Origin: a virus
Lineage: Duplodnaviria; Heunggongvirae; Uroviricota; Caudoviricetes
Direction: 5' to 3' (one strand)
DNA length: 64,000 nucleotides
Virus record (IMG/VR): IMGVR_UViG_3300027852_001421
In this document: positions 33,404 through 57,658 of the stretch, piece after piece
How the letters are laid out: each line of letters begins with the position of its first letter
Position numbering within the stretch: position 1 is the first letter of the stretch
The notes under the pieces: generated by a model
Told to the model about the DNA's origin: nothing
The model's input: only the letters and a program-made list of their open reading frames with translations
Database searches by the model: none
Translations under genes and position numbers: made by a program

Positions 33404-33527
33404 CTCTCCCAGAGATTTGCGGAGCAAACTCGTCGGAGCAACGCGCATCGCTGAAGCGATACGCTGGCTCGCACTTCCTTCGGAAATGCTGCCGCCTGTC
33501 ACTCCCTGACGGGAGTGACTATGCGAA
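33404..33527 (+). repeat. approximately 125-nt intergenic element, copy 1 of 2 (other copy 57469..57593), containing palindrome GCGCATCGC-N4-GCGAT(A/G)CGC and ending in hairpin plus TATGCGAAAA
   Basis: About 85% identity to 57469..57593 over the core ctctcccagagattt...cgctggctc(g/a)cac....ctgtcac. Confidence 0.55.
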
Positions 33528-33969
33528 AATAAAATATGATGATGTATTGTGTTTGCGAAAATCACTATCTATCTAGGTGGTATCAGAGAGGCCCCGGAGC
33601 TCGTAAGAAGAGTCCCGGTCTTTAAAACCGGTTGTCTGGGGGCGGAGCCCAGCGGGGTCACCATCTGAACCGTACTGCGAAAAATGTGGATTGACCTCTT
33701 TACAGTAGATCAAGCATCCCTATATTCAAATCACGATGAACAGAACCCCCCTGCCCCATGCAGGTCACTTGAAAGGACAGATCATGAGCAAGGATTAAAC
33801 CAGCGTCTCACTCCGCACCAAAGACGACACGGCGCCTCCTGGCGACGATGCATATCGTGGGTTTACCCGCGAGCTGAAGACCACCGCTTCACCGTCGAGC
33901 TCCGCTCAGCAGGTTGAAGGCCTCGGTGATGATCTTCGCCTCTATTCCATTCTCAGAACAGATATCACC

Positions 33970-34305
33970 ATGTCGCAAGGCAAGGCGAATGCCCAATGTG
34001 GTCACGCCTATGTCGCAGCTGCAATCGGTGCTCTGGGCACGCCTGAAGGCGATGCCTATGCCTCTCTGAGCCCTGGAACCAAGATCTGCCTCGATGGCGG
34101 ATCTCTTCAGAAGATGCAGCTCCTGATCGAGCAGATCTCCCTGCAGGGCATTCCCTGCTTTCCCATCATCGACCGCGATCATGTGGAGCTGCCTGACTTT
34201 GATGGCTCTCCGATCCTGACGGCCATTGGCCTCGGGCCCTTCACGCGTGCCGATACGCCACGCGCTCTGCGCAAACTAAAGCTTTTTAAAGGACTTCAAG
34301 CATGA
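33970..34305 (+). CDS. peptidyl-tRNA hydrolase, PTH2 (archaeal/eukaryotic-type) family; annotated from first ATG but homology continues upstream
   Basis: MSQGKANAQCGHA matches the PTH2 GKGK(I/V)AAQC(S/A)HA catalytic region. C-terminal GLGPFT...RKLKLF matches the GIGPGP...GHLKLY end of PTH2. The in-frame upstream codons LRLYSILRTDIT align with the first beta-strand of PTH2, yet no ATG/GTG/TTG precedes them before an in-frame TAA at 33796. Confidence 0.6.
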   Translation: MSQGKANAQCGHAYVAAAIGALGTPEGDAYASLSPGTKICLDGGSLQKMQLLIEQISLQGIPCFPIIDRDHVELPDFDGSPILTAIGLGPFTRADTPRALRKLKLFKGLQA

Positions 34306-34775
34306 CCGACTTTTCCAATTGTCCCGACTGTGGCGGCTACACCCCAGAGGGCACGCCACTTTGCACGACCTGCAACAGCACCGGCCGGCGCCAGCTGACC
34401 GAGGAGCATATCGATCTGGCGATCAGTGCCAAGGAATGGGCCGACGAAGAAGTTGATCGCTTCTTCTCCGAATGGTGCCGTATCAACAGTAAGCATCACG
34501 GTTACGGTGTGGCCAGCTGGGAGATCGGCTCGAAGCTCCACATCACCCAGGACACCTCCTGCATGGGCTGCGCCAGCAGTGAGGACCACAGCTTCCCTGC
34601 TGAGTGGTTCTACGCCACCGGTGATGTGCGGACTGCGCTGATCGAAAAAGACCTCAAAGATAAACAGGCAGCTGAGCTCCAGCTTCGCAACAGCTCTCGC
34701 GTGGCCCGCATCGAGCGGCTCAAGAAAGAAGCCGCGGAGCTGGAAGCTGACATCATGAAGGGGGCCCCGGCATGA
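34302..34775 (+). CDS. zinc-ribbon-containing hypothetical protein
   Basis: ATGA overlap with pth2. N-terminal CPDCGG...CTTCNSTG. Confidence 0.55.
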   Translation: MTDFSNCPDCGGYTPEGTPLCTTCNSTGRRQLTEEHIDLAISAKEWADEEVDRFFSEWCRINSKHHGYGVASWEIGSKLHITQDTSCMGCASSEDHSFPAEWFYATGDVRTALIEKDLKDKQAAELQLRNSSRVARIERLKKEAAELEADIMKGAPA

Positions 34776-35248
34776 GAAAAGCACCCTTCCAGAACAGCCA
34801 GCAGTGGAAGATCGAGCGCGAACATTCGCGGATGAAGAGCCACTACAATCAGAAGATCATTCAGATGCGCATCGAGGGCGGCCACGGTCTGACTTGGCTG
34901 CCGCACCTCGACCCCAAGATGAGCGACAGCGATTTGTCGATCGCCTTTTACTGGCTCCTGCGCCCTTGGGATGACAGCCCGGCCGCGCGCCTTGGTCTGC
35001 TCACGCGCGCCTGCCCGCCAGGCGATAAGGATGCCTATCTCCTTCACCGCTTCCTGCTCAAGGGCTGGATCAAGGAGTTCGAACACCGCCAGCGCCGTCT
35101 CAAAGCGCGCTGGAGCGCCCCCGGTGGCGACCCGGACGCGCGCAGCCTCTGCATGCGCAACCGGGCCATCATTACCCGCCTGATTTCGATCTTGCGGGCC
35201 TCGCGACGCTATGCCGGCCAGATGGCCGACCTGGCGCACACCCTGTGA
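34772..35248 (+). CDS. hypothetical protein (158 aa)
   Basis: ATGA overlap with the upstream gene, so third gene of the operon. Confidence 0.5.
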   Translation: MRKAPFQNSQQWKIEREHSRMKSHYNQKIIQMRIEGGHGLTWLPHLDPKMSDSDLSIAFYWLLRPWDDSPAARLGLLTRACPPGDKDAYLLHRFLLKGWIKEFEHRQRRLKARWSAPGGDPDARSLCMRNRAIITRLISILRASRRYAGQMADLAHTL

Positions 35249-35306
35249 CCCCAGCAGCCGGGTCGTAATGGTGCGGTCCCGGCGTCCAACAAAAAGGAAT
35301 TTGGAC

Positions 35307-35726
35307 ATGACGACGACAGTGACAAAAGCAACATTCCCTACAGTATCTGAAGAGATGAAGGCTGCGGCAGCACGCTACCCCGATTGCCTTACGGCGATGC
35401 TGGAGCTCCAGAAGGCGACCGCCTTCAAGGGTTGGTATACGGTCTCCAACGAGGCCGACCAGTCTGCCTACTTCGCTGACAAGCTCGAGTTGAAAACAAA
35501 GGAAGACTACATCGAGATGCGCGATGCTTTGAAAGCCTGGCTGCGTCTCATGGAGACCACGCAGCGCAGCCTGAAAGAGATGACATCTCGTCCGGGGGAT
35601 CAGTCAGCACCCCAGATGCACAAACACTTCGGGGCAGGTCTGGTGACCCAGCTCATCGAGATCCGCCGCGCGGGTAAGGTTTGGTCTGCGGCTCAGGCGA
35701 AGAGCAAACTCGAAGCTGCGGCATGA
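35307..35726 (+). CDS. hypothetical protein (139 aa)
   Basis: AAAGGAAT 6 nt before ATG 35307. Confidence 0.55.
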   Translation: MTTTVTKATFPTVSEEMKAAAARYPDCLTAMLELQKATAFKGWYTVSNEADQSAYFADKLELKTKEDYIEMRDALKAWLRLMETTQRSLKEMTSRPGDQSAPQMHKHFGAGLVTQLIEIRRAGKVWSAAQAKSKLEAAA

Positions 35727-35764
35727 ATAAGCTGGTGGCGGGCTCTGCCGCCGCCCTAGCGGTT

Positions 35765-36031
35765 TTATGGCTCAACAGGATCTTCGTTCTGATCGGGATG
35801 TGGACCTTCGGCGACATTGTCGCGGCGCTTGAAGTTCGCCGGCTCCAGGTCGGAAAGGATATCGAGGCTCTTGGGGTCGTAGTCCTGATTTCCATCATCC
35901 GGGTGCGGCCTTCCATGCTCAACGTGATCCGTAGAGTATGGCGGTGTATCATGCACTTTGATCAGGCTGGGGTCGTACCCCATCTCTGCATCGTCATCTA
36001 CCGAGGTTTCGGGCTCATCGGATTTGGGCAA
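35765..36031 (-). CDS. small acidic protein (TTG start); C-terminus QNEDPVEP
   Basis: Perfect GAAGGAGG 7 nt upstream of TTG. Acidic, Pro-terminated tail like other ORFans here. Antisense to a plus-strand ORF, so strand assignment is by RBS quality. Confidence 0.45.
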   Translation of the reverse strand: MPKSDEPETSVDDDAEMGYDPSLIKVHDTPPYSTDHVEHGRPHPDDGNQDYDPKSLDILSDLEPANFKRRDNVAEGPHPDQNEDPVEP

Positions 36032-36061
36032 TGTCGTCCTCCTTCGCAGTTCCCGCTGAAC

Positions 36062-36283
36062 TCATGCAACAGCAGGTTTGATCTCTCGTGTCGAATAGGT
36101 ATGCCCTGCCAGATCACGGTTGCGGAAGAACTGGTCCATTGCCCAATCCGGCCGATCCGTGGGGAAGCAGGCAACAATCCTGTTCTTGCCATCTAGGATC
36201 TCGAGCATCACCCGCGGTCCCTCGGCGCGCTCAGGCCCGCCTGCAGGCTCAGCTGTCATCACGGTTTTTCCACCCTTATTCAT
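36062..36283 (-). CDS. small hypothetical protein (73 aa)
   Basis: TAAGG before ATG. Immediately upstream (same strand) of the 35765..36031 gene. Confidence 0.4.
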   Translation of the reverse strand: MNKGGKTVMTAEPAGGPERAEGPRVMLEILDGKNRIVACFPTDRPDWAMDQFFRNRDLAGHTYSTREIKPAVA

Positions 36284-36426
36284 AGAACCTTACTCCTCGC
36301 TTCACAACTCAAGCCTATGCTGGACCCGATATCGCGAAAATGCATAGTTATTGGTTATCCACAGAAAGCCGCGCTGCGCTGGCTGTGGGATCTAGAAAGC
36401 CACCTCTTTGCGGATAGTCTGGTGGC

Positions 36427-36744
36427 ATGGATGATAAACACTCTCTCGAATGCCTAGACCCCATGTCCCAGGACTGGGATCCAACGCCGCGCTGGCTGCG
36501 CCGCCTGTTTCGAGGCGTCGTGGGTCTCTTTGGCCTGGCGATGCTTCTGGCGGCCTGGTCGGTTTTCACGTTGGAATCCACCATCAAATGCAAATATCAG
36601 GGTGTCTGTGAAACGCCATCGATCATTGGCCCTCATGCCTTCGGGACACTTTGGCCGCTGATTACCATTGGGCTCTTTTGCCTATGGCTAGCCTGGCGCA
36701 TGTCCGGCGGGACTTCAAAGAACGGGAAGATCCAAAAGCCGTAG
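36427..36744 (+). CDS. small membrane protein (2 TM)
   Basis: 105-aa ORF with two hydrophobic helices. Confidence 0.45.
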   Translation: MDDKHSLECLDPMSQDWDPTPRWLRRLFRGVVGLFGLAMLLAAWSVFTLESTIKCKYQGVCETPSIIGPHAFGTLWPLITIGLFCLWLAWRMSGGTSKNGKIQKP

Positions 36745-36921
36745 CGGCTTTTCTTTTTCGGTCCTGCGGTCTGCCTCATCAAAGAGCTTATCGGTGCTCG
36801 AGGGTACTGTCGGGAAAGCATAGGACCGATAGAGGGGCTCAACCTCGTCGGCCGGAGGTTTCCGTGCCTCTGTATTGCCGCTCAAAAGCGATATGAGGGT
36901 TGCGAGGGTTGTTCTGATCAT
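36715..36921 (-). CDS. small secreted protein (about 68 aa)
   Basis: GGAGAA 6 nt before ATG 36921. Signal-peptide-like MIRTTLATLISLLSGNTEA. Confidence 0.35.
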   Translation of the reverse strand: MIRTTLATLISLLSGNTEARKPPADEVEPLYRSYAFPTVPSSTDKLFDEADRRTEKEKPLRLLDLPVL

Positions 36922-37013
36922 CCGGTTTCTCCGATTACACAGAACAACCATATGCCGCCGTTTTTCGCATCCAACCCTAGCAGGTAATTTTACCCCTCCA
37001 GACACTGAAGGTT

Positions 37014-37460
37014 TTACAGGCCTGGTTCTTCTGACGGTGCCGCAAGGCGGAAGCGCTCCAGATCGGCATCACCGATCATAGACAAGAACTCCGTAGCGCG
37101 GCGCGCGGCGTCGCTGGGCAGCACATCTGCAAGATGGTCTCCCTCTTCCGCTTTGACCATGGCCGAGAGGGTTTGGATGTCGAAATCGAATGGGTCAGCC
37201 GATGCCAGGCAAAGACGCTCGCCCGCGCCGGGCGCCGGGAAGTCGCAATCGCCGCGATCATATCCCTTGTCGATCGTCCGTCCCGTCCCCGCATCTAGCA
37301 AGAACCAAAGGGCCCCTTGGCGAAAAGTTTCATCAAGCTCGATCATATCCGCACCAAGCTCCTCACCTGGCGGCCCCATAACGATCACGCCCTGGCGATC
37401 TGGATCGCGCAGGACGTAGAAATGCTCATCGAACTGTTTTTCGTCGAACATCGGCTTCAC
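37014..37460 (-). CDS. hypothetical acidic protein (148 aa)
   Basis: Adjacent to the upstream gene with no gap, suggesting an operon. Confidence 0.55.
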   Translation of the reverse strand: MKPMFDEKQFDEHFYVLRDPDRQGVIVMGPPGEELGADMIELDETFRQGALWFLLDAGTGRTIDKGYDRGDCDFPAPGAGERLCLASADPFDFDIQTLSAMVKAEEGDHLADVLPSDAARRATEFLSMIGDADLERFRLAAPSEEPGL

Positions 37461-38384
37461 TTATTCTGGCTCCTGATCGTCAAGATTCAACTCGAACTTC
37501 ACAGGCTCAGCAAAGGGGTTGACGGGTCTGGGGAGTGCCTCAGTTTTCCCGCTGAGGCGCATCATGACAGCTTCATCAATATCCGGGCCAGACTCAGGGA
37601 GATCAACAGTCACAGGCTCTCCCCGCTGGGGGTGGGTACGGCCCATCGACTGCTGGATGTTGCTTTCCGAAACTGGCTCGTACTTGGTTCGGTCCTTCTT
37701 GGCCGCGTAAGCGGGGAGCTCCTCTTCATAAAGCGCAGGGCTCTGTGGTTTGCGCGGAATGCGACCCAAGTCCTGCAACGGCGCGTGATCCCCGGTGTAA
37801 GAAAGCTGACGGCGCGATTTGAACATTGGGGAAACTCCCGCAGCAACGGGCTCGATCCCTTTCACCGTCTTGGCGAACTTAGCGGATACCTTCAGCGCGT
37901 GAAGCTTGTCGAAGTTATGAGCCTCACCAAGCATGACCACATCCACGGGCTTCTGCCCTTTGCGGTGGAGGCGGCTTTTCGACTGCTCGAGTTCAATCTC
38001 AGGCATCGGATGCATGCGTCGGTCGCCATGTCCCACTAAAAGCTTGCTGAGCTCTTCAGGGTCCATTTCCCGAACCGCTTTGATCATCTCTTCTTGAAAC
38101 GGGCGAAGTTTCACCATGCCCAGCTTGCTCCGATCACGGGCTTCGGCCTGAAGCCTTGCTTTTGTGCCCTTCTCGCAGTTCTCGGTGAATTCGATCGTGG
38201 CGTTCTCTGGCAGGCTGTACCCCATGTTGAACTTATGCATGGATACGACAGCCGTGCCGCCATCCCTAATGTGGGCGAGCATATCTCTGATGTCCTGGGG
38301 CCGAGCAAAGCCGCGGGCTTCGCGGCGCACGGCCTCAAGCATCATTTCTTGATCATCTGCTGTAAATACGAGTTTGCCGGACAT
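37461..38384 (-). CDS. hypothetical protein; C-terminus FELNLDDQEPE
   Basis: 307-aa ORF. Confidence 0.6.
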   Translation of the reverse strand: MSGKLVFTADDQEMMLEAVRREARGFARPQDIRDMLAHIRDGGTAVVSMHKFNMGYSLPENATIEFTENCEKGTKARLQAEARDRSKLGMVKLRPFQEEMIKAVREMDPEELSKLLVGHGDRRMHPMPEIELEQSKSRLHRKGQKPVDVVMLGEAHNFDKLHALKVSAKFAKTVKGIEPVAAGVSPMFKSRRQLSYTGDHAPLQDLGRIPRKPQSPALYEEELPAYAAKKDRTKYEPVSESNIQQSMGRTHPQRGEPVTVDLPESGPDIDEAVMMRLSGKTEALPRPVNPFAEPVKFELNLDDQEPE

Positions 38385-38522
38385 GGATCGATTTCCTGTG
38401 AATATTTGATGTTATCCTATTATGGGAGGAGGTAGCGAAAAATCCCAACTTATCTCTAACGGTGGGTTGCCCTCGGACCTTATTCAAGACAGTTTTAGAG
38501 TGATTAATATTGGGAGTTCCAA

Positions 38523-39146
38523 GTGAACCGTGATGCAGCCAAGACCTTCCTGTCCCAGTACACGCCTGCCACAGCCGTCCAGACCGTCTCTCAGTTGCGC
38601 TACCACAGATCATATCACGCCTTATTGGGCCTCGGCCGGCTTTCATGTGACGATGATCGCAGCTCTAGCCTGCTGGCACTCTCCTGCGCTGTCTATGGTT
38701 GGATGCCAACCATCCTCAGAGCGTTTGAGCCGGAAAGGTTTAACAAAAACGATCCGGTATCGGCGATCAGAGAGATCAAAACCGCGGCTGAGGCCGTCAC
38801 GTTTCTCACCGCCATGGAAAAACGTGCGCCGCTCAATGGCTCCTGGATCGGCACGAGCAAGCTGATGCATATGCTTAATCCTGGCATCTTTCCGATCTGG
38901 GACGGCCGGGTGGCTGCGCGGTTCGGCCCTATCAGTGATTACAGCACCAACCTGAAGCGGACCTACATCTCTTATCTAGGCTTCATGCACGAAGAGATCC
39001 CCCACCGCTTTGATCTTATCGGCGCTACGCGTGATCACATCAACAGCACGCAGGGCTACCAAGCGACAGACATGCGCTGCCTCGAGCTGCTTCTCTTCGC
39101 TTACGATCCACTGGATGGCTCCGCAGAGATCGCCATGGTCGCGTAG
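38523..39146 (+). CDS. hypothetical protein (GTG start)
   Basis: GGGAG 7 nt before GTG. AGCGAAAAA motif 80 nt upstream. Confidence 0.5.
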   Translation: MNRDAAKTFLSQYTPATAVQTVSQLRYHRSYHALLGLGRLSCDDDRSSSLLALSCAVYGWMPTILRAFEPERFNKNDPVSAIREIKTAAEAVTFLTAMEKRAPLNGSWIGTSKLMHMLNPGIFPIWDGRVAARFGPISDYSTNLKRTYISYLGFMHEEIPHRFDLIGATRDHINSTQGYQATDMRCLELLLFAYDPLDGSAEIAMVA

Positions 39147-39282
39147 CTTGCTGAGCGGAGCTTAAGCACGCCCTGGCGAACCGGCTGGGACTACATGACA
39201 GTCGTGTTTCTATTTTTCAGATGCCGCTATGGCCTTTCATGCACGGGACATATCCTGCTGGAAGAACAAAGTGAGGTTAGAT

Positions 39283-40245
39283 ATGTCCAAGAAATTAACT
39301 GCTGAGCAGGCGTCGGAACGTCTTCTGGGACTGGCGCGCGGTATCGCACATCAGACCGAAACCGAGCCTGGTCTGACCCGCGAGCAGAAATGCGAGAAGA
39401 CAGCCTATGGGTTGCTGGCGCTGCTCGATGGCAAGACACCGCATTTTCCGCGCTGCCTGCTTGCTCCGCAACAGCTTGAAGAAGTCATCGCCGAAGCGAA
39501 AGCTGAGGGCATGCCTTGGTACAATGAAGACATCTTCAGCAGCCCCGGCCTCTCGGATCACTTCATGGCCCGACTGAAAGATCCCTCCTGGCTTCCAGAT
39601 CGCACAGATGCTGCGCCCTACTCCGCCGATGAAATTCGCGATCAGATCGTCCGCTCTTTTATGGGCACTGCTGAATACTGGGCAAAGAATGACAAGACGG
39701 ATGAGTTGAAGCGCTGTGAAGGTGTGGCCTTCAGCTGTTTTGCCGCGCTCGACGGGGTGAGCTTGAGCGGGCAGATGATGGAGATCTCGCTTGATGCTGA
39801 AGATATTGCGGGCCGTGTCGAGATGGGCGCATTCCAGCCCGAGGTCCTGCAGCCTTATCTGCACGAGACCTATCACAGTATCGACCCCATCGAGATCGAG
39901 ATCCCGACGCCGGGAGCGCTGAACCTCTATACGGTCAGTGTTTCAAATTCTTTGGAGGACACGGAATATTATGTGGTCGCTCGCGACTGCACACATGCGG
40001 CAGAGATCTACGTACAAGCCGTTATCGATGACATTCTTTCCGCCGATCTGGAAGAGATGGAGCAAGAGGCCGCTCTTACTGTCGAGAGAGTTGGCAAGAA
40101 TGCGACGGGCGAGCCGCGTTGGATTGGGTGGGCTAGTGATGATGTAATCACACGGCGCATGAGGCCTTATGATGGGGAGGTCGTCGATCTTGCAAATCTC
40201 GAAAACTGGAAGGCTTACCAGAGTGACGAGGAGTTGGAGCCGTGA
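39283..40245 (+). CDS. ORFan protein; C-terminus KAYQSDEELEP
   Basis: GTGAGG before ATG 39283. 320 aa. Confidence 0.6.
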   Translation: MSKKLTAEQASERLLGLARGIAHQTETEPGLTREQKCEKTAYGLLALLDGKTPHFPRCLLAPQQLEEVIAEAKAEGMPWYNEDIFSSPGLSDHFMARLKDPSWLPDRTDAAPYSADEIRDQIVRSFMGTAEYWAKNDKTDELKRCEGVAFSCFAALDGVSLSGQMMEISLDAEDIAGRVEMGAFQPEVLQPYLHETYHSIDPIEIEIPTPGALNLYTVSVSNSLEDTEYYVVARDCTHAAEIYVQAVIDDILSADLEEMEQEAALTVERVGKNATGEPRWIGWASDDVITRRMRPYDGEVVDLANLENWKAYQSDEELEP

Positions 40246-40844: not shown

Positions 40845-40845
40845 G

Positions 40846-41151
40846 CTAAGAGAGATCCTTCATCGCTCTGTCGATCAGCTTCTGATCGTAAATCTCCCCT
40901 TCAGGTGTGGAAATGACGATAATGATTTTACCATTCCGATACTTGTAAGAGATATCCAGCGGTGGCACGTCGTGCTTGAATGCAGCCATTGGGCGCAAGA
41001 TCAGTTCCTGGACCACCTTATTGATGTTCGGACTGGCTTCCTGACGCAGGTGCTCCCATGCGGCCAAACCGACATATGCGTGACCACCTGCGCCTTCATA
41101 GGCCGAGATCATCTGGTCCAATGCAGCACAGGGGGTGCCATCCATAACCAT
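40846..41151 (-). CDS. small hypothetical protein (about 100 aa)
   Basis: Internal ATG of the track ORF. Overlaps the 3' end of the upstream nuclease-like gene by about 42 nt. Confidence 0.4.
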   Translation of the reverse strand: MVMDGTPCAALDQMISAYEGAGGHAYVGLAAWEHLRQEASPNINKVVQELILRPMAAFKHDVPPLDISYKYRNGKIIIVISTPEGEIYDQKLIDRAMKDLS

Positions 41152-46950: not shown

Positions 46951-48102
46951 TTACCTAAAAGCGTCTCGGGATGCCTTGAAGGACGCTACCAGGGCATCAT
47001 GAACCACAGGTTCTGGCGGTGCTTCCCCCTCCTCGCAGTCTCCCCCCAAGCTCACGAGCTCTGAGAGCGCCGCAGAGCGCCCAGGACGGCCCTCAAGACC
47101 AAAGGCGCGGCGCACATCTGCCAAGGTCTCCATGGTGATCACATGGGCGCGTTTGCGGCCCTCCTCGAGGATGTGGGCCACCAACCCTTCGTCAGCTGCG
47201 GCTTCAGCGCGACGCATCCGCATCGGCGCCAACATGTCCTGCAAGATCCCGTCCAAGCGACGCTTCAGAACCATATCGCCGAGCCCGCCGGCGCGGTACT
47301 GATCCTTAAGTTCGGCGACAGCATCGCTGTCCGGATCAAATGCATCGAGCATCGCAAAGACAACATTGCCCTCGACCTTGCCAGGATCAGAGACCTTCAG
47401 GTGACCGGGATCGGTGAACATCCGCAAGACCGCCGCGCGGATCTCCTCCGGGCTGTCGCGGAGCGCGATGGCATTTCCGGCGGACTTTGACATCTTGCCC
47501 GCCCCGTCGATGCCCGGTAGGCGCGGTGCGTTGCTCTGGATCAAGGTCGGGGTGACCAGCACGTTGCGCCCCGCCATGCGGTTTACCTTTCCCGCGATCT
47601 CACTGGTGATCTCCACAAGCGGCGCCTGGTCGGCGCCCGCGGGCACAATGTCCGCGCCAAAGGCTGTGATGTCGGCCGCCTGGCTCACGGGGTAGCAAAG
47701 AAAGCCCGCCGGGGTGCCATCGCCAAAGCCGCGCTGGGCGATCTCCTCACGGATTGTGGGGATGCGCATCAGCCGCGGCACGGTGACCAGGTTCATATAG
47801 AGCATGGTCAGCTCGTTGAGTGCCGGCAGATCGGATTGACGTACGATGGTCACCCGTTCCGGGTCGATGCCGGCCGCAATGTAATCGAGCACCACCTCGC
47901 GCACATTGGCCGCCACATCAGCGGCGCGCCCGGCGTTGTCTGTCAGCGCCTGCATGTCAGCCACCAGAATGGTCACATCGTTCTTGTCCTGCAGAGCGGC
48001 GCGCGCCTGAAGGGTGCCGGCCAGATGGCCGAGATGCAGCGGACCGGTGGGCCGGTCGCCGGTGAGAATGGTTTTGCCTTCGAGGGTCGAGAGATCTTGC
48101 AT
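46951..48102 (-). CDS. trpS: tryptophan--tRNA ligase
   Basis: HIGH-type TGPLHLGHLAG and KMSKS motifs. 383 aa with a C-terminal extension of about 40 aa. Confidence 0.85.
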   Translation of the reverse strand: MQDLSTLEGKTILTGDRPTGPLHLGHLAGTLQARAALQDKNDVTILVADMQALTDNAGRAADVAANVREVVLDYIAAGIDPERVTIVRQSDLPALNELTMLYMNLVTVPRLMRIPTIREEIAQRGFGDGTPAGFLCYPVSQAADITAFGADIVPAGADQAPLVEITSEIAGKVNRMAGRNVLVTPTLIQSNAPRLPGIDGAGKMSKSAGNAIALRDSPEEIRAAVLRMFTDPGHLKVSDPGKVEGNVVFAMLDAFDPDSDAVAELKDQYRAGGLGDMVLKRRLDGILQDMLAPMRMRRAEAAADEGLVAHILEEGRKRAHVITMETLADVRRAFGLEGRPGRSAALSELVSLGGDCEEGEAPPEPVVHDALVASFKASRDAFR

Positions 48103-48863: not shown

Positions 48864-48931
48864 TGGGTCGTATTCCTTATTTGTCTGGGAAAGTCAGTAT
48901 TGCCGAGGCGGGTTCGCCTCGGCATTTATGT

Positions 48932-49792: not shown

Positions 49793-50019
49793 AACCTTAC
49801 TCCTTTTTCAGTTCGATGGAGATCATGTCAGGCGGAGTTCTCAACTGACGCAAGCCGCAATTTTGCAATGATACGGTATGAGACGCTATGCGACTAAAAA
49901 AACTTCGACGGTGCCTTTCGTCCTGCGGGGAAATCGGTCCGTGAGCGTGACAGCCTGTGCGAAAACAAATATCTCTAGGCGAATCATCTAACTGTTCACG
50001 GCGTTACATCGGGGGAGTC

Positions 50020-50904: not shown

Positions 50905-51337
50905 GTGCCTTTTCTGGCTGCGCTTGCGGTGACCGGCTCATGACCGGCCCTTCATCCATGAAAGATGCTTCCGCGGGGATAAAGCCCCTCCTGCTGTACC
51001 AGTTGGTGAGGTTCATTTCGTTGAGCGGGCCGGTAGGCACCACTTCCATACGCAGAGCAATTTCATGTTTGTCTGCCAAAGCGCAAAGAGCCTCAAGCAT
51101 ACGCGTGCCGTGCCCCTGCCCTAGCATCGGGCGCCGGACCTTGATCAGACTGACGCTGACCTCCTGATCTTCATGGATGTCATCGAGACAGAAGGCCCCG
51201 ATTTCCACGCCCTCATGCGCAAAACGATAAAAACCGTCGACATCCGGCCAAAGCGCATCTGCTTCAGCCAGGAAGGCTGCGGCCGGTGACAGGTCTTGAT
51301 CAGCGGGCGCCGCATCGTGCTGGTCGTAATGTGTCAT
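50888..51337 (-). CDS. GNAT-family N-acetyltransferase
   Basis: VRRPMLGQGHGTRMLEAL (motif A, R/Q-x-x-G-x-G/A) plus a downstream acidic/hydrophobic motif B region. 149 aa. Confidence 0.65.
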   Translation of the reverse strand: MTHYDQHDAAPADQDLSPAAAFLAEADALWPDVDGFYRFAHEGVEIGAFCLDDIHEDQEVSVSLIKVRRPMLGQGHGTRMLEALCALADKHEIALRMEVVPTGPLNEMNLTNWYSRRGFIPAEASFMDEGPVMSRSPQAQPEKALTPEP

Positions 51338-51553
51338 AAGAGCTCCGCAATCTTGTGTTCCGCTCAGCATAGCCCCTATCGCCGAAAACCGGGCATCCTG
51401 CCCGGGGAGGATAATTTCAGTTATTCTTGGTCTTTTCATACAGTCTCTCCAGAATCCCGATAAAGAAGTCTCGCTTTAAAATTCGCATATCTTGTCTTGA
51501 AGTGGATAAGGGCCCACATAATATTGATAGAAGGATCACAGGGGGCATGAACG

Positions 51554-51781
51554 ATGAGCTTTTCCAAAACCAAAGAGTTTCAGGAGATGAAGCGCAGCCT
51601 GCAAGAACGCAGCCAGGCGAGCCGCAAGGAGCATGCACAAGCCATGGCAGCCGCCGAGATCGACCAGGAAGCAGACCTCTCGGGCAGCACACTTCTGTCT
51701 CCCGCGGAGTTCAAATTCGCGATGGCCACCGGTGTGGATCCGCAAGGAGCCTACACCGATGAGCAAGAGGAAGATCACTAA
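51554..51781 (+). CDS. small acidic protein (possible antitoxin-like partner); C-terminus TDEQEEDH
   Basis: 75-aa ORF overlapping the start of the downstream RelE/ParE-like gene by 23 nt. Confidence 0.4.
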   Translation: MSFSKTKEFQEMKRSLQERSQASRKEHAQAMAAAEIDQEADLSGSTLLSPAEFKFAMATGVDPQGAYTDEQEEDH

Positions 51782-52433
51782 GGTCGAGATTTCCAAGCTC
51801 TTTTGGAAGGACCTCGCGAAAGCGCGCAACAACCCGGATTACTGGACGATCCGCAAACAGATCGGTGAGATGGTCAGCAAGACCGCCGCGGGAGAGCCAG
51901 GGGGCGACAACCCTTTCTCCGGCAAGCGCTTTGCTGGCATCCGGCATATGCATGTCGCCGCCAAGCTCATTGTCTTTACCACCTACCCCGACGATGACAC
52001 GATGCGCATCTGCGCGCTGAAGAAGCATGACTTCTATGGTTTCAAGCGTGAGCGCAAAGGTATGGCCGAAAAGGCTGCGCAAAAGATCTGGAACGCGTCG
52101 AACAGCCCGGCCGTGGGCTCTCCAGGCTGGGGCACGATCAAATGGTCAGACCCCGGCGAGATTCCGGGGCACCCGGAGCTGCCGGAGTGTTCTTCGGAGA
52201 CGCTCAACACGCTTTATCAGGAGGTTCTCGATGAGATCGACAGCCTCGAGAAGCTCGATGTGCAGATCGCAGGCATGTCGAACCGGACCGGTCAGCGTGT
52301 CGCGGAATCCTGGATTGAAAGCCTGATCGAGGCACAGGAGGCTGTGGAGATGCAGATCCTGAAGCAGGCGCGCCGCAAGCCAGATGCATTGCCTGTGGCG
52401 GAGTTTGAGCGTTGGACCCTATCACCTGAATAG
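51759..52433 (+). CDS. RelE/ParE-like toxin-fold N-terminal domain fused to an about 130-aa C-terminal extension
   Basis: GIRHMHVAAKLIVFTTYPDDDTMRICALKKHDFYG resembles the RelE/ParE/YafQ beta-sheet (R...YRIIY..DD....I..I.HR.D.Y), preceded by the usual two helices. Confidence 0.45.
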   Translation: MSKRKITKVEISKLFWKDLAKARNNPDYWTIRKQIGEMVSKTAAGEPGGDNPFSGKRFAGIRHMHVAAKLIVFTTYPDDDTMRICALKKHDFYGFKRERKGMAEKAAQKIWNASNSPAVGSPGWGTIKWSDPGEIPGHPELPECSSETLNTLYQEVLDEIDSLEKLDVQIAGMSNRTGQRVAESWIESLIEAQEAVEMQILKQARRKPDALPVAEFERWTLSPE

Positions 52434-52581
52434 GAAGCCGCGCCCGCGGTAGCGGACCGGAACCCTGCCAGTTTGACCTATTAAGAATTGTGCCCTACCG
52501 TTTCATCTGTGTTGCGCCACCAGCTGGGTGAACGTGACGATGCAATTTTCAGACTCCGCGAATTTTCAAGAAAGGTCATAT

Positions 52582-53574
52582 ATGCCCAAATTCCTTGATG
52601 GTGCTAAATTACTCCAGCGCATGAATACCGAACTAAGACACTCAAAAAGCGCCGATCTCGCAGTCGCATTCTGGGGTGCCGGCGCGGCAGATGCGCTTGG
52701 CATCCAAGATGGAGCCAAGTTGCGGATCGTCTGCAACCTGATGAGCGGCGGCACGAACCCCAAAGAGATCAGCAAGCTTCAGGCGGGCGGTGCTGAGGTA
52801 CGCCAGCTTAACGATCTTCACGCAAAGATTGGCGTGATCGGAAATATGTCCTTCGTGGGGTCATCGAACATGTCGGCCAATGGCCTCGGCGCGGAGGGAC
52901 GCGCTGCACATTGGAGAGAGGCAAATGCTGTTTATGCAAAGGCTCGACCCGAAATTGCAAAGATGTTCAAAGGTTACTGGAAAGCTTCAGAGCCCATTAC
53001 AGAGGATGACCTGACAGCAGCCGCAGCCGCTTGGGCCAACCGGCAGCGTGGCAATGCAGTGGTGGCTGCGCGCAAAGGCGATCGAGGCTTGATCGACGTC
53101 CTGCGCAGCGCGCCTGAAGAACTGGATGCGCTCAATGTAAGAATGGTGGTCTTCGACACGATGACCGACCCGGATGAACTGGAGGTTCTCGATACGGCGG
53201 ACCAACAAGCCCAGGAAATGTACGGCCCTACCTTCTCCGTGTATTGGGACTGGGAGAGCATGGCGAAAGCCGCCCAATCCGCCTATCTCGTCTCATTCGA
53301 CTGGCCTGCGCGCGGCGGTATAGCGCGGGGCACGGTCCTTCGGCGCAATGCAGATGAGTTCTCGGATTTCGAAAAGGATGGCAGCATCTTCCATCCTGCC
53401 TATGAGGTCGAAAGCATTGAAGGGATGACGGTCGATGCGGGCGACAAAGCCGCCCTGCGCAAGGCATTCTCAGCCTATGTCAAAGCCGGTGCGACTGGAG
53501 AAGAGGATGAAGATCGGGCCTACAACTTCCCCATTTCGGAGTTGGCGCCCTATCTTCCACCGGCCAACAGCTGA
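52582..53574 (+). CDS. PLD-like (HKD-motif) domain protein, degenerate motif
   Basis: HAKIGVIGNMSFVGSSNMSANG: H-x-K then G in place of D, then the G/S-S-x-N tail of the HKD signature. Acidic C-terminal region. Confidence 0.5.
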   Translation: MPKFLDGAKLLQRMNTELRHSKSADLAVAFWGAGAADALGIQDGAKLRIVCNLMSGGTNPKEISKLQAGGAEVRQLNDLHAKIGVIGNMSFVGSSNMSANGLGAEGRAAHWREANAVYAKARPEIAKMFKGYWKASEPITEDDLTAAAAAWANRQRGNAVVAARKGDRGLIDVLRSAPEELDALNVRMVVFDTMTDPDELEVLDTADQQAQEMYGPTFSVYWDWESMAKAAQSAYLVSFDWPARGGIARGTVLRRNADEFSDFEKDGSIFHPAYEVESIEGMTVDAGDKAALRKAFSAYVKAGATGEEDEDRAYNFPISELAPYLPPANS

Positions 53575-53575
53575 G

Positions 53576-54790
53576 TCAGATACAGTTGCGCCAGGCCAGA
53601 GCAATGGATTGGCGCGCTGCTTCATCCAAGGCGCTCTCCTCACGGAAATTCCCCATAACCCGAGGAGCATCCAAAGAAAACTCCACCTGAGTGGCAGATG
53701 AAAACCTGTCACTCAGACCGATCATCGAGGCCCGGATCAGGATCATATCCCCGTTGTAACGGACATCGAGGTTCCGCCTCGTGATTTTGTGAAGCTGGCC
53801 ATCGATAACGACCTCCACAGCATCGAGCGGCAAATCATCTGGGTTCGGATAGGATGGGGTCCGCAGATCCATTATTATCATCATCATGGGTTTGCGATCA
53901 TTTAAGCAATACATCGTAATTTGCTCCAGCATGGAGTCGGAGCGTCTCGGCTTTGCAGCTGTAACCAGTCCGGTGCTGTAAGGCTCCATAAACCACGCCG
54001 CGAGGCCACTGCCGGAAGCGATGTTGAGCTCATCAATCTCATCCGCTGTGGGGAAGTATAGATCGTTGCTCTGTGTTGAAGATGCAAAGGCGACAACCCG
54101 TGGATCAATACCCATTTCGACAGCATACATGAGGATTTGGCCTGTGATCGCCTGGGCTACTGAGAGCGTGCTGGACCTTATTTGGGCAGCTTGTTCAGCA
54201 GTCACCAGATCGCTGTTATCCTCGCCGCCGCCGTAAAACTGATGGAAGCCCAGGGAGGCGTCATTCGTGGGGTAGTAGGGAGATTCCACAAAGCGTACTT
54301 CCCCGCCTAGAAAAGCATAGGCGCAGGAGCTTGCGCATATGCCGGGCTCGACGCCATCGTACCAGCTATCGCAAGGCGTGTTGTAGCTCTCATGCGTTCT
54401 TTCGGTCCGGCCAATATGTGCGGTGAGCCCGGCCTTCCGAAACAAACGACCCAACTCCAAGCCGGCAGACAGGTTTCCTCCTGGAGAATGCAAAACCAGC
54501 TGGCTCCCGCCCCAACTGCCGCCATCGTCGTTCAGGAATTCCCGGAAGCGGGCTGGTGTGTCTGGCTGAATGACGCCCGTAGCGGCGATCCAAGCTGAGG
54601 TGTTCGAGTTCCCTTTGCTTGTCGCCCAGGAGAACGTCATGGGGGCATCGAAGGCGCCGGGTTCAAGTGCTGCGGGCACTGCGCAGGCATCAGCTTGTTG
54701 CTGTGCAGATGCGCTGGAAGCGGCAAGCGTAAAAAGAACGCCAGCACAGGCTGAAAATACCGTAGTCCCGAGTTTTTCGTATGCGGACAT
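53576..54790 (-). CDS. secreted protein with ClpP/crotonase-fold serine-peptidase-like region
   Basis: Signal peptide MSAYEKLGTTVFSACAGVLFTLAASSASA. LVLHSPGGNLSAGLELGRLF and GICASSCAYAFLGG resemble the ClpP/SppA INSPGG...G.AAS blocks. Confidence 0.45.
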   Translation of the reverse strand: MSAYEKLGTTVFSACAGVLFTLAASSASAQQQADACAVPAALEPGAFDAPMTFSWATSKGNSNTSAWIAATGVIQPDTPARFREFLNDDGGSWGGSQLVLHSPGGNLSAGLELGRLFRKAGLTAHIGRTERTHESYNTPCDSWYDGVEPGICASSCAYAFLGGEVRFVESPYYPTNDASLGFHQFYGGGEDNSDLVTAEQAAQIRSSTLSVAQAITGQILMYAVEMGIDPRVVAFASSTQSNDLYFPTADEIDELNIASGSGLAAWFMEPYSTGLVTAAKPRRSDSMLEQITMYCLNDRKPMMMIIMDLRTPSYPNPDDLPLDAVEVVIDGQLHKITRRNLDVRYNGDMILIRASMIGLSDRFSSATQVEFSLDAPRVMGNFREESALDEAARQSIALAWRNCI

Positions 54791-54944
54791 CACCACATGT
54801 GAAGCTCTACCCAATCTCATCCGGATACCATCCTTTGCAAACAGCCGACCACAGACCCTATAGGGATACAACTATGGCACGCGATGCGGATTATCGATGA
54901 GTTTCTTCGGTATTGCGAAATAATCCCCGTGGAACTTCAGGGAG

Positions 54945-55535
54945 CTATGGTCCCGCCATCTCGATATCGTCATCTTCATCGAGAGAGATGTCGGGCGCAT
55001 CGAAGATCTCTTGCAAGCGTTCCAGCTCGCTGCGCTCTGCAGAGGGTTCAGGTAGGTGGAATGGATCATGAACCTCGTGAGGTGATATCACAATGCCATC
55101 CAGGGCCGAAGCTTTGTCGATCGTCATCATAGCGCGGCGGGTGGCAGTACCGTACAAATCCTTTTCGTGAAAGCCGAACAGGCCCCTCAGACCACCTGCC
55201 TTTTGCACCTCCGATCGCAGTTTTCTCTCCATATCTGTACGTGCGCTTAGATATCTCTCTTGAGAATCCGCAGGGAAGGCGTGATCCTCGTGCCCAGCCA
55301 TTCGGCGCAGGGCACCCCAATGCAAATTCAAGACATCAACGACTTCGACTAGGGCTGGCATGTAAATCGCACCAGTAGCCGCGCGACTGTTAAGTTCCTT
55401 TCTCAACCCCTGAAGCCCAATCAGGCCATGGATTTGGCCACTACAGATATCGATCTCGGCAAGGACCTCATCGATCTGTTCTGTCTGACTAGCATCTGGT
55501 TGCGTCACGGTTTTCTCCGTTCGCAGCAAGGTCAT
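54945..55535 (-). CDS. operon gene A: small acidic protein; paralog of gene D in its body; C-terminal tail LERLQEIFDAPDISLDEDDDIEMAGP
   Basis: ATGA overlap with gene B. Shares about 25 C-terminal residues and about 84 nt of DNA with gene B. Confidence 0.55.
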   Translation of the reverse strand: MTLLRTEKTVTQPDASQTEQIDEVLAEIDICSGQIHGLIGLQGLRKELNSRAATGAIYMPALVEVVDVLNLHWGALRRMAGHEDHAFPADSQERYLSARTDMERKLRSEVQKAGGLRGLFGFHEKDLYGTATRRAMMTIDKASALDGIVISPHEVHDPFHLPEPSAERSELERLQEIFDAPDISLDEDDDIEMAGP

Positions 55536-56209
55536 GGTCCCGCCATCTCGATGTCGTCGCTATCCTCAATAGATACGTCGGGCGCATCGAAGATCTCTTG
55601 CAAACGTTCCAGCACGATGTCCCGAAGCTCGGTCTCGCTCCGCGGCCGCGGAATGTTCGGATGGTGGATCGATTGACCGATCTGCGGAAATTCATCCGCA
55701 AGCTCCACCATGATGGCATCGATGACACTCGCGCGATCATAGACGCCCTCTTCAATGCCCTTCTGGCCAGTGGCGACCAACAGTTTGAAGAAGAACTCCG
55801 CGTGGCGCGCGCCCTGGATGTTGTCCAGCCAGCTGCCGCCGAGTGGCCATTGGCCATAACTGTCGTGGCATTGCTTCATGACCTCATTGGGGTCCAGGCC
55901 CAGGATGACGAACTTCTCCTTCCGGTCCCAGTGGCGCATGAGGCGGTAGTGCAGATCGTACCCTTTCAGGCATCCGTAGCGGCTCTCGTCCAGTGCGGCT
56001 TCACGGATACGCGTTCCACAGTTCTTTGCTGAGGTTTCGAAGTCTTCACCGTAGCCACTGGGAGCAAAATCCGGGTCTGAAACTTGCTCGTAGAAACCAG
56101 TATCCAACACCGCCCCGCCGCGCGAAGTGGATCTGCAGATGATCGTATCTGCAAAGTCATCCAGTGTACGTTTGCCGGGCGAATAGTATTTCTTGGAAAG
56201 CTGCATCAT
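55532..56209 (-). CDS. operon gene B: unrelated body carrying the same C-terminal tail LERLQEIFDAPDVSIEDSDDIEMAGP
   Basis: DNA 55534..55617 is about 85% identical to 54947..55030. Confidence 0.55.
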   Translation of the reverse strand: MMQLSKKYYSPGKRTLDDFADTIICRSTSRGGAVLDTGFYEQVSDPDFAPSGYGEDFETSAKNCGTRIREAALDESRYGCLKGYDLHYRLMRHWDRKEKFVILGLDPNEVMKQCHDSYGQWPLGGSWLDNIQGARHAEFFFKLLVATGQKGIEEGVYDRASVIDAIMVELADEFPQIGQSIHHPNIPRPRSETELRDIVLERLQEIFDAPDVSIEDSDDIEMAGP

Positions 56210-56210
56210 T

Positions 56211-56825
56211 TCAGGGCTCCATTTCGCAGTCGTCGTCTTTGTCGCAGCTGTCCTCAGGAGAACCTCGGACAGGGCGCCAATCTTCGCGCAGGCCCTTCTC
56301 CATCAGTTCAATGCTGTCCCAGCCATCAAGCCTGACCAGGTAGCTAATCTCCCGATCATCGAAGTCGCCAAAGCTCGTGCCACGGGGAAGCATATGGTCT
56401 TTTTGGAACTGCTTTGGATGTTCCAGCCATTTCTCGACTTTGAGGGCAACGGCCGCGAGGGACTTGTGGAAACCTTCCTTGTCGTGGATCTCTTCGCCGT
56501 TGCGATTAGAGAACTTGCTGAAGGCCTCACCGACAATGGTGTCGACCTTATCAAGTAGGATTGCCGAGGTCAGATACATCTCGATCTTGCCCTTGGGATC
56601 GTGCCCCGCTGCCAGAGCATTCCAGGCCGCGCCCTCATCGAAGCGGCGGCCTTCCAGACCCTCAAATGTTCCGAGCTTCCCGGCATCCCGGGCGCGCTGC
56701 ATCGCTTTCACGACGAGCTCTTCACGCGCGCAGCGGTGCAGGTAGACTCCGAAGGTCCGATCATAGGCGTGCTCATGATCGAAGATCGGGTCGAAGAAGG
56801 CCTTGGTGATGAGTCTATCGGTCAT
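56211..56825 (-). CDS. operon gene C: hypothetical protein; C-terminus DSCDKDDDCEMEP
   Basis: 1-nt gap to gene B and 6-nt gap to gene D. Confidence 0.5.
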   Translation of the reverse strand: MTDRLITKAFFDPIFDHEHAYDRTFGVYLHRCAREELVVKAMQRARDAGKLGTFEGLEGRRFDEGAAWNALAAGHDPKGKIEMYLTSAILLDKVDTIVGEAFSKFSNRNGEEIHDKEGFHKSLAAVALKVEKWLEHPKQFQKDHMLPRGTSFGDFDDREISYLVRLDGWDSIELMEKGLREDWRPVRGSPEDSCDKDDDCEMEP

Positions 56826-56831
56826 ATCAGA

Positions 56832-57341
56832 TCACCAGGCCGGGCTGTCGTAGTCAGGTCGGGTATGCTCTGCAGAGATCTTTGGCCGACCAAAAGGATC
56901 GCTGACACTCAGCGGCGCGCACTTGATGTCCGTGTATCCGCAGGCTTTCTCAATGGCTAAGATGGCGCGCTCCGCGATGTCCTGTCCGGCGTTCTTCTTG
57001 TGCAGGCCGAGGACCCCACGAATTCCGCTGGTCTTTTGAATCTCTTCTTTCACTCCAGAGGCAATCTCATCCCGGGCCGCGAAGCGACGCTCAACCCCAG
57101 CCTGGGCCTCATCTGAGATCTCAGAGATGCCGCGCCTGTCTTGCATGCCGAGATAGGAATGCTGGGACTCAATCGCGGATTTGATTTCCGACAGGGTTTT
57201 GACATCGATCGGTCCAGTGACCTTTTCGACGCCGACAAGCAGGCTGACATCGAGAAGGCCCTCGATTTGGCCTTGGCAGACATCAAGCTCTGCCATTGTC
57301 TCTCGGATACGGGCGGTCTTGCTGCGGAACGGGTTTTTCAT
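56832..57341 (-). CDS. operon gene D: paralog of gene A body (no DIEMAGP tail)
   Basis: TAGGAG 8 nt before ATG 57341. ELDVCQGQIEGLL and IRGVLGLHKKN blocks align with EIDICSGQIHGLI and LRGLFGFHEKD of gene A. Confidence 0.55.
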   Translation of the reverse strand: MKNPFRSKTARIRETMAELDVCQGQIEGLLDVSLLVGVEKVTGPIDVKTLSEIKSAIESQHSYLGMQDRRGISEISDEAQAGVERRFAARDEIASGVKEEIQKTSGIRGVLGLHKKNAGQDIAERAILAIEKACGYTDIKCAPLSVSDPFGRPKISAEHTRPDYDSPAW

Positions 57342-57402
57342 GGTGGAACTCCTAATGCTTGAAGGAATTCTGCGCGGAGGGCACGAAAATTCAAACAACC
57401 AA

Positions 57403-57658
57403 GTGGCTCTCGCACATCCCAAGAGATGTGCTGCCACCCTCACTCCAGCTCCGCTGAAGTGAGTATGCCTCTCCCAGAGATTTCCGGAGGAAACTCGTCG
57501 GAGCGACGCGCATCGCTTATGCGATGCGCTGGCTCACACCTCCATCCGGAGGTGTTGCCGACTGTCACACTGACTTCGCCAGTATGACTAGGCTCTCGCA
57601 CATCTAAAGAGATGTGCTGCCGCCCTCACTTCAGCTGCGCTGGAGTGAGTATGCGAAA
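57403..57658 (+). repeat. two about 68-nt direct repeats (57403..57470 and 57590..57658), each with two hairpins, flanking copy 2 of the 125-nt element (57469..57593)
   Basis: ggctctcgcacatc(cc/ta)aagagatgtgctgcc(a/g)ccctcact(c/t)cagct(c/g)cgctg(a/g)agtgagtatgc, about 90% identical; the second copy ends in TATGCGAAAAA. Confidence 0.55.

Follow-up and report, generated by a model that had tools for sequence, protein, structure and literature searches.

A hairpin-built, probably mobile repeat family beside a common intergenic word in a megaphage-like lineage

Two intergenic regions of a 64-kb stretch of viral DNA (the window) carry similar blocks of about 120 nt, one upstream of a PTH2-like gene and the other upstream of a ThrRS-like gene, each with a divergent minus-strand gene on its other side. 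The question raised by this locus is why two translation-related operons should have such a block in common. The original prediction, which described these neighbors correctly, including a paralogous pair of membrane proteins, offered a small RNA, a shared cis-regulatory module for translation-stress genes, or a MITE-like element. Bacterial chromosomes are well known to harbor small mobile repeats that do not code for protein, whereas such repeats are rarely described in phage genomes.

Modular repeats at three loci

The repeats occur in a short and a long form. The short form, S, is a module of about 60 nt composed, in order, of GGCTC(TC), a hairpin, TGCCGMC, a second hairpin, and TA. The long form, B, is a four-hairpin element of about 120 nt that consists of an S-type module plus two extra 5′ hairpins (H1 and H2) behind a second GGCTC. 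Alignment of the units indicates that the linkers GGCTC(TC), TGCCGMC, and TA are conserved and the stems variable. The features of the two sites, in window coordinates, are as follows:

32768–33301, minus strand: 177-aa membrane protein, divergent neighbor of site 1 (paralog at 32162–32716, 39% identical)
33402–33521, plus strand: site 1, B copy 1, from sequence and fold, ends uncertain by about 3 nt; GGCTC, H1 (33406–33438), H2 palindrome (33443–33464), GGCTC (33466–33470), H3 (33471–33489), TGCCGCC (33490–33496), H4 (33498–33519), TA
33466–33521, plus strand: S-type unit U1, the 3′ half of the site-1 B (covariance model R1, 60.9 bits, E 4e-15; alignments)
33522–33529, plus strand: TGCGAAAA adjoining the site-1 element on its 3′ side, identified by sequence
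33970–34305, plus strand: PTH2-like gene downstream of site 1 (Pfam PF01981, E 1.7e-9)
56832–57341, minus strand: 169-aa protein with no Pfam family, divergent neighbor of site 2
57405–57465, plus strand: site 2, S unit U2 (GGCTCTC, H3, TGCCACC, H4, TA; R1, 86 bits)
57466–57468: TGC after U2
57468–57590, plus strand: site 2, B copy 2, from sequence and fold; H1 (57471–57503), H2 (57508–57529), GGCTC (57531–57535), H3 (57536–57555), TGCCGAC (57556–57562), H4 (57564–57588), TA
57591–57651, plus strand: site 2, S unit U4 (R1, 88.6 bits; 90% identity to U2)
57652–57659, plus strand: TGCGAAAA abutting the site-2 array, identified by sequence; conserved in L005 (array absent) and L007 (single unit)
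57699–57767: Thr-rich leader ORF, 5′ of the ThrRS-like gene
57795–57825: terminator, 5′ of the ThrRS-like gene
57867–59117, plus strand: ThrRS-like gene downstream of site 2, with class II core and anticodon-binding domain

The two B copies are 79% identical globally and 84% identical over their first 100 nt, and the stretches 33404–33481 and 57469–57546 align without gaps at 88% identity, which bears out the pair of similar intergenic copies originally reported. The direct repeats said to bracket copy 2 are also present, at 57405–57468 and 57591–57654 (64 nt each, 91% identical to each other), and they are S forms of the same family. Overlooked at the time was that the 3′ half of each ~125-nt copy is the same two-hairpin unit as these flanking repeats. 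All pieces (60–125 nt) are non-coding, and the reading frames that run across them are long spurious frames only.

A third copy lies at site 3, on contig L011 of the same lineage, upstream of an unrelated 549-aa gene that is followed by a ClpB-like gene. It shows 79–83% identity globally and 85–90% over the first 100 nt. The three sites thus hold the arrays [B], [S][B][S], and [B][S], respectively. They have the left end SCTCTCCC in common without having a flank in common. Immediately left of the inserts stand ...GAGAA, ...CAAGT, and ...GCTTA; the right flank reads TGCG... every time. Local duplication or chance similarity, which the presence of only two sites within the window might suggest, is refuted by this third copy in an unrelated context on another contig and retains next to no probability; all three sites are, moreover, empty in relatives.

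Filled and empty sites beside a common word

Empty sites were found at all three loci in relatives whose flanking proteins are 57–96% identical, with homologues P0005–P0008 as anchors for site 1 and P0001–P0004 for site 2. At site 1, the corresponding intergenic region of L027, L029, L030, and L031 (flanking protein 82–92% identical) lacks the element. At site 2, which holds three pieces in the window, there is no insert in L004 (85% identical) or L005 (57%), and the closest relatives, L006, L007, L008, and L015 (94%), carry a single orthologous S unit and no other insert; B is missing from L004, L005, L006, L007, and L008. At site 3, the insert of L011 is absent from L033, L037, and L038 (90–96% identical). 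On these comparisons, three loci unrelated to one another show insertion polymorphism for a sequence whose ends are defined. Because the 10–20 nt to the left of each insert cannot be aligned with the empty alleles, the position of the junction is known only to within about 3 nt.

At 3/3 sites, the right end of the insert stops 0–3 nt short of (T)TGCGAAAA, on its upstream side and in a single orientation; on the minus strand of the window, the element is 3′ of TTTTCGCA(TA). No 8-mer in the window is more strongly over-represented than TGCGAAAA, which has 34 copies (21 of them intergenic) against 1.4 expected and is enriched 10–65 times in every locus of the lineage. Roughly two thirds of its intergenic sites fall in divergent regions. 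Among 139 motif sites, those with an element are extreme outliers in upstream folding energy. The word is retained at the empty sites of relatives, including that corresponding to site 1. The original prediction had treated TATGCGAAAA, directly after the 3′ hairpin, as part of the element. Its position is right for copy 1 (33520–33529); at copy 2 it comes after the second of the bracketing repeats (57650–57659) and not after the ~125-nt block, and in both cases it belongs to the genome-wide 8-mer, which also occurs where the element is absent.

At site 2, TGCGAAAA is followed by TTGACC (57664–57669), a 17-nt spacer, and TACATA (57687–57692), and this region may be promoter-like. No second promoter box stands at a fixed distance from TGCGAAAA. 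A literature search for the 8-mer returned primer sequences only, and the nearest isolated phage, Atu_ph07 (37% GC), has no TGCGAAAA in 41 kb.

As read from the aligned alleles, copies are shown to have inserted immediately 5′ of (T)TGCGAAAA, always in the same orientation. At least three insertion sites beside this word, empty in close relatives, argue for mobile DNA and against a shared regulator of translation genes. The proposed translation-stress module found no support: in relatives without the element, both genes (PTH2 and ThrRS-like) are still in place, as are the Thr leader and the promoter-like motif, and the context of the third copy is of another kind. No gene gain or loss accompanies the element at the sites compared. 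By these comparisons, the two "translation" operons have the element in common through insertion and not through common control, a caution against taking shared upstream repeats for regulons.

Fold, and regulatory or RNA functions

The element folds 3.5–6 sd more stably than shuffled sequence. Covariation, suggested earlier as a check, is present: the seven units compared have 83% of their cells paired and nine pairs changed on both sides, a result reached by 0/500 shuffles. The B core is 96.6% paired, with three compensatory pairs. Single hairpins of 19–25 nt are imperfect palindromes, and H2 has the form GCGCATCGC-N4-GCGATGCGC, a 9-bp palindrome without mismatch in copy 2 and with a single one in copy 1, exactly as first noted. 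The end hairpins, H1 and H4, are unlike in sequence and shape. The strand opposite the motif is the better folder in 7/8 pieces and forms more G-U pairs. The covariation of the stems suggests that the hairpins are maintained and that the structure itself is under selection.

Such a structure could act in cis, either by forming the 5′ leader when the divergent minus-strand gene is transcribed leftward or by serving as an array of operators or insulators placed between back-to-back promoters; the insert would then have been recruited, with its mobility secondary. The minus strand, which folds better and is richer in G-U pairs, is the sense strand of the divergent gene; H2 is a palindrome of operator type; and a weak sigma-70-like match on the minus strand, TTCGCA-N17-TATTTT, was seen by eye just right of site 1. 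All three copies also lie in divergent promoter regions, but this is uninformative, since most intergenic TGCGAAAA sites are divergent anyway. Relatives that lack the element retain the genes, leader, and motifs, and the promoter scan gave no convincing match. In addition, a conserved block separates each element from the start codon of the divergent gene; if this block holds that gene's promoter, the element would be untranscribed. We consider a cis-acting role improbable.

A gene for a small RNA or an RNA decoy, such as a phage-borne anti-defense RNA duplicated by happenstance, would fit the very stable multi-hairpin fold (z −3.8 to −6) and its compensatory changes, and solitary repeat-like RNAs are known in phages (PMC10651486). 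However, promoter and terminator scans around both sites found nothing convincing that frames the element, which lies upstream of the adjacent promoter-like motif and not downstream, and it is dispensable in close relatives. Rfam searches at gathering and E-value thresholds, a further check proposed at the outset, detected no family over the element and nothing there with E < 0.4; only two tRNAs in the window reached the threshold. Together, these observations make an RNA gene highly improbable. One specific candidate, a TIGR array of the dual-repeat or stem-loop type, was rejected. Such arrays have variable 8–12-nt spacers, box C/D flanks, and an adjacent Nop-domain Tas protein (PMC12045711), whereas here the unpaired linkers are conserved, the stems vary, and no nearby Nop-domain protein appears among the 25 Pfam families listed out of 32 with a match. 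The idea of a CRISPR-repeat mimic was dropped on by-eye comparison.

Relation to known mobile repeats and possible mode of spread

The family is probably small, non-coding, hairpin-built mobile DNA of an uncultured marine megaphage-like lineage (contigs reach 656 kb; genome about 650 kb), placed immediately 5′ of TGCGAAAA. It is best read as a low-copy, non-autonomous, target-specific element akin to REP, BOX, and IS200/IS605-derived elements.

Like IS200/IS605-derived elements and REP/REPIN–RAYT systems, the element is small and non-coding and consists of imperfect palindromes able to fold when single-stranded, with one strand the better folder. REP units are palindromes of 20–40 nt, a size matched by the 19–25-nt hairpins. 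As in IS200/IS605-derived and REP elements, neither terminal inverted repeats nor target-site duplications are present: the best end-to-end match is 44–70% over 10–16 nt and differs between copies, and flank comparison found no duplication at the three sites. As in IS200/IS605-derived elements, a fixed short word adjoins the insert in one orientation without being duplicated, here (T)TGCGAAAA at 3/3 sites. There is no second motif on the left flank of the insert, such as a PeSL-like mini-circle would have left behind, and the A-tracts resembling it there are also found at empty sites. IS200/IS605 ends are alike, whereas H1 and H4 are dissimilar. The GTAG-type head of REP sequences is absent, the linkers described above standing in its place, and copy number is very low compared with the tens to hundreds of REP/REPIN copies per genome. 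The target word is 8 nt long and promoter-associated, and the host replicon is megaphage-like. Among the Pfam matches listed for the 70 window ORFs and the retrieved loci, which cover a minor part of the ~650-kb genome, there is no Y1/HUH transposase or RAYT and no transposase or integrase of any other kind. By analogy, and tentatively, the hairpins could be single-stranded recognition structures of the minus strand, with an IS200/IS605- or REP-type enzyme moving the element in trans, a mechanism that we consider less likely than not.

Pneumococcal BOX elements, with their boxA-boxB(n)-boxC modules, and enterobacterial BIMEs similarly join hairpin-forming boxes through conserved linkers; they vary between strains in the number of tandem middle units and lie in intergenic regions near promoters. 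The resemblance is one of modular layout, and no sequence relationship to them was detected. BOX and BIME families are chromosomal, with tens to hundreds of copies, and none is known to stand at a fixed distance from a promoter word. MITEs such as Correia/NEMIS are likewise short, non-coding, dispersed, strain-polymorphic, and found in promoter regions. Of the three candidates first offered, the MITE-like one comes closest: insertion polymorphism with defined ends at three loci supports it, but both hallmarks of MITEs, terminal inverted repeats and a target-site duplication, are missing.

PeSL cassettes of T4-type phages (PMC2839356) are also phage intergenic repeats with a promoter motif and stem-loops at spots of genome plasticity. 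A PeSL contains its promoter, its stem-loop serves as a terminator, and such cassettes border ORFs that are shuffled (PMC2839356). Here, by contrast, the promoter-like word and boxes pre-exist at empty sites with the insert upstream of them, and there are four or more hairpins, defined ends, and no accompanying gene gain or loss. Shuffling of the PeSL type, documented in T4-type phages (PMC2839356), nonetheless suggests another route, in which TGCGAAAA promoter regions would serve as short homology patches and a hairpin block would be copied between promoters by illegitimate or short-homology recombination. The right junction coincides with the motif every time, the sequence left of the inserts cannot be aligned to empty sites, no transposase is among the listed matches, and in L036 a gene cassette of about 690 nt with its own TGCGAAAA motifs occupies the intergenic spot of the L011 element. 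However, three independent copies with the same left end and no common flank are not expected of recombination with one illegitimate junction, no motif is duplicated left of the insert, and stem covariation suggests selection on structure. We regard this route as unlikely.

If the family is mobile DNA, as we prefer, repeated insertion at one motif would build tandem arrays in which the unit closest to the motif is the youngest, and site 2 may have grown in this way from [S] to [S][B][S]. The landing spot between back-to-back promoters suggests that the insert is tolerated, and it would be dispensable for regulating the neighboring PTH2 or ThrRS-like genes. Copies differ by 10–20%, so no recent movement is documented. 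It is rather unlikely that an undescribed phage mechanism, such as a recombinase, nuclease, or guide-RNA-type system, reads the TGCGAAAA word or its bound protein or open complex and adds hairpin modules serially at the 5′ edge, which would make the element a promoter-homing megaphage parasite, or that the hairpin arrays, as they grew, were recruited to insulate divergent promoters from each other. With filled and empty alleles cleanly distinguished at three loci, modular hairpins, and strict placement next to the commonest promoter-associated word of the lineage, the family is a tractable case for studying how selfish DNA spreads in giant phage genomes and whether this reshapes promoter regions.

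Exact-pattern scans of IMG/VR and GTDB genomes found no H1–H2 core. A generic small-unit pattern gave only chance-level matches in GTDB and none in IMG/VR; in JGI metagenomes, 2/9 matches were real (L011 and L015). The 1.4-kb region had no blastn match in plasmid and phage collections, and covariance model R1 and blastn-short over 470 kb detected no copy beyond the three sites. About 77 kb of contiguous genome contains two of these sites, and the sequence of relatives, about 250 kb in all, contains one more; with three occupied sites only, copy number is low and the sample small. A contig from another sample, L003, ends within the element, a behavior typical of assemblies at repeats.

Anatomy of a modular hairpin element

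The two look-alike intergenic stretches of the original prediction are real: 33404-33481 and 57469-57546 align without gaps at 88% identity, and the two copies are 79% identical globally over their full ~120 nt and 84% identical over the first 100 nt. The direct repeats said to bracket copy 2 are borne out as well (57405-57468 and 57591-57654, 91% identical), as are the palindrome, the CCGGAGG-like boxes and the TATGCGAAAA tail, except that the tail of copy 2 adjoins the second bracketing repeat rather than the 125-nt copy.

Sequence reading and folding place all copies in a single modular family with two forms. The short form S (~60 nt) consists of GGCTC(TC), hairpin H3, TGCCGMC, hairpin H4 and TA, and the long form B (~120 nt) of GGCTC, hairpin H1, CRAC, hairpin H2 and T, followed by an S-type unit. 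This shared layout makes the bracketing repeats (U2, U4) the same unit as the 3' halves of the 125-nt copies (U1, U3), and U1-U4 score 61-89 bits with a covariance model built on these units. The window holds two arrays:

33402-33521, site 1, a single B
57405-57651, site 2, S-B-S

Three B copies, including one found outside the window, have the left end SCTCTCCC in common, and their flanks are not shared. Pairing is kept while the stems vary, with 83% of cells paired across seven units and nine pairs changed on both sides, values reached in none of 500 shuffles. The B core shows 96.6% pairing and three compensatory pairs. The window minus strand, opposite the one that bears TGCGAAAA (an 8-mer found genome-wide), gives the more stable fold in seven of eight pieces and is richer in G-U pairs. 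Neither a terminal inverted repeat at the element ends nor a target-site duplication at its flanks is detectable. No Rfam family matches the element. A TIGR array was rejected, the Nop family being absent among the 25 of 32 matching Pfam families listed, and likeness to CRISPR repeats was compared by eye only.

Filled and empty sites

The corresponding intergenic regions were fetched from relatives, anchored on the flanking proteins. In L004 and L005, at 85% and 57% protein identity, site 2 is empty; L006, L007, L008 and L015 (94%) hold exactly one S unit where the window has S-B-S. At site 1, a ~119-nt insert is missing from L027, L029, L030 and L031 (82-92%), and the rest of the region is alignable. 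The end of the L029 contig (1-100, reverse strand) is an inverted duplication of neighbouring sequence, probably an assembly artefact.

A third copy was found in an unrelated context outside the window. This locus, L011 (site 3), was the one further true locus that a generic small-unit pattern recovered from JGI metagenomes, and carries a B copy and then an S unit between a 212-aa gene and a 549-aa gene. It has no gene in common with the window, but GC content and motif enrichment are the same. In L033, L037 (a 656-kb contig) and L038, the intergenic region at this position measures 166 nt and lacks the element. Together, these comparisons show the element at three independent sites, each of them empty in several relatives. 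Searches of GTDB representative genomes, IMG/VR and the plasmid and phage collections found no copy at the sensitivities applied, and copy number is low.

Two features lie upstream of the 416-aa ThrRS-like gene next to site 2:

57699-57767, Thr-rich leader ORF (MMNMIASTTTTTTTHPGRSVVV and stop)
57795-57825, intrinsic terminator

Both features and the TGCGAAAA/TTGACC region are conserved across all site-2 relatives, with or without the element. The suggestion of a shared regulator of translation genes is not supported: relatives keep genes, leader and motifs without the element, and the gene that follows the third copy is an unrelated one.

Target word and possible mode of movement

The right end of the insert lies 0-3 nt upstream of (T)TGCGAAAA at each of the three sites, always in one orientation, and relatives with an empty site have the motif as well. 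TGCGAAAA is the top over-represented 8-mer in the window (34 copies versus 1.4 expected):

4530, 14537, 33522, 33554, 33676, 57652, examples among the 34 TGCGAAAA sites

It is enriched 10-65 times in every lineage locus and absent from the 41 kb examined of Agrobacterium jumbo phage Atu_ph07. In the window, 21 of the 34 copies are intergenic and the majority are aimed at a gene downstream; there is no second box at a constant spacing. TGCGAAAA is probably a promoter word or regulator-binding word specific to the lineage. Upstream of 139 motif sites, folding energy averages -15.5 kcal/mol (sd 6); element-bearing sites are extreme outliers at -30 to -33 kcal/mol, indicating that hairpins do not generally accompany the motif. 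Regions adjoining it may be general insertion hot spots. Perfect DnaA-box-like nonamers (TTATCCACA / TGTGGATAA) occur near TGCGAAAA sites at about 1380, 5840 and 59225.

The element has defined ends, no coding capacity and hairpins under selection; it occurs in unrelated contexts, as filled and empty alleles, and has grown in tandem at one target. Taken together, these features make it probably a non-autonomous mobile element, strictly specific in target and orientation. The arrays may have grown by one insertion after another at the motif's 5' edge, the newest unit lying closest to it. Of the identities first proposed, a MITE-like element comes nearest the truth, but the missing terminal inverted repeats and target-site duplications set it apart from MITEs as defined.

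On the window minus strand, which is also the better-folding strand, the element sits 3' of TTTTCGCA(TA), a likeness to IS200/IS605-derived elements and REPs, which move as single strands. Against such a mechanism, the end hairpins of this element are unlike each other, and no Y1 transposase, RAYT or integrase was seen among the matches listed for 70 window ORFs and in the Pfam lists of ~250 kb of relatives; movement of this type is rather unlikely. A PeSL-like recombination origin (PMC2839356) is possible. It would accord with a ~690-nt cassette (L036:3980-4836) that has an ORF of 133 aa, includes TGCGAAAA motifs of its own and occupies the intergenic spot of the L011 element, but not with the exact left end shared between copies. 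At sites 1 and 2, a conserved block between each copy and the start codon of the divergent gene could hold that gene's promoter, in which case the element would sit between two back-to-back promoters. Within the class of small hairpin repeats, the element is notable for promoter-word targeting and its giant-phage host.

Host lineage and neighbouring genes

An identical ThrRS-like protein is encoded on the 112.6-kb ENA metagenome contig ERZ27237540:k141_1676534 and two JGI contigs, whose intergenic DNA is identical to that of the window; one contig, L003, starts inside the element. Relatives are found on contigs as long as 656 kb (JGI Ga0208018_100003), others measuring 642 and 375 kb. Gene content includes three aminoacyl-tRNA-synthetase-like genes, two tRNA-Glu, PTH2, PurZ-type adenylosuccinate synthetase, HipA, RTX repeats and PilS-like pilins, and the majority of window ORFs are without a Pfam family. 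The lineage's conserved 549-aa protein has its only isolated-phage match in Atu_ph07 (31% identity), with a ClpB-like gene following in both, and no match in the plasmid collection. Contig size, gene content and the Atu_ph07 match suggest that the lineage is a marine megaphage-like element.

For a mobile or viral genome, the 64 kb are dense in translation genes, counting the tRNA-Glu pair, PTH2 and the three synthetase-like genes, one of them of class Ic:

46951-48102 (-), synthetase-like, class Ib
57867-59117 (+), synthetase-like, class IIb
20352-20516 (-), tRNA-Glu pair

An adenylosuccinate-synthetase-like gene at 21946-23223 (-) has its best match in the phage PurZ family (phrog_1211, E 5e-55). 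PurZ is a mark of phages replacing adenine by 2-aminoadenine. The leader/terminator block 57699-57825 is almost invariant even at 57% flanking-protein identity, and looks like a threonine attenuator of the phage-borne ThrRS-like gene; its match to Rfam Thr_leader is below threshold (E 0.059).

A ~90-nt block at 33575-33665 is invariant in L027, L030 and L031, its flanks being variable. It holds the hairpin CCGGU-CUUUAAA-ACCGG, with an anticodon-loop-like shape that would read UUA. The block has a weak tRNA-Sec match (E 1.1), no ARAGORN call and a fold stability that is not unusual (z -1.4), and may represent a structured RNA, tRNA-like or otherwise, ahead of the uORF and PTH2 genes. Elsewhere, 3920-4210 (-) is a long series of repeats with periods of 9, 12 and 21 nt; it lies within a 298-aa ORF (3488-4384) and encodes a low-complexity tract rich in Glu, Ala and Lys.
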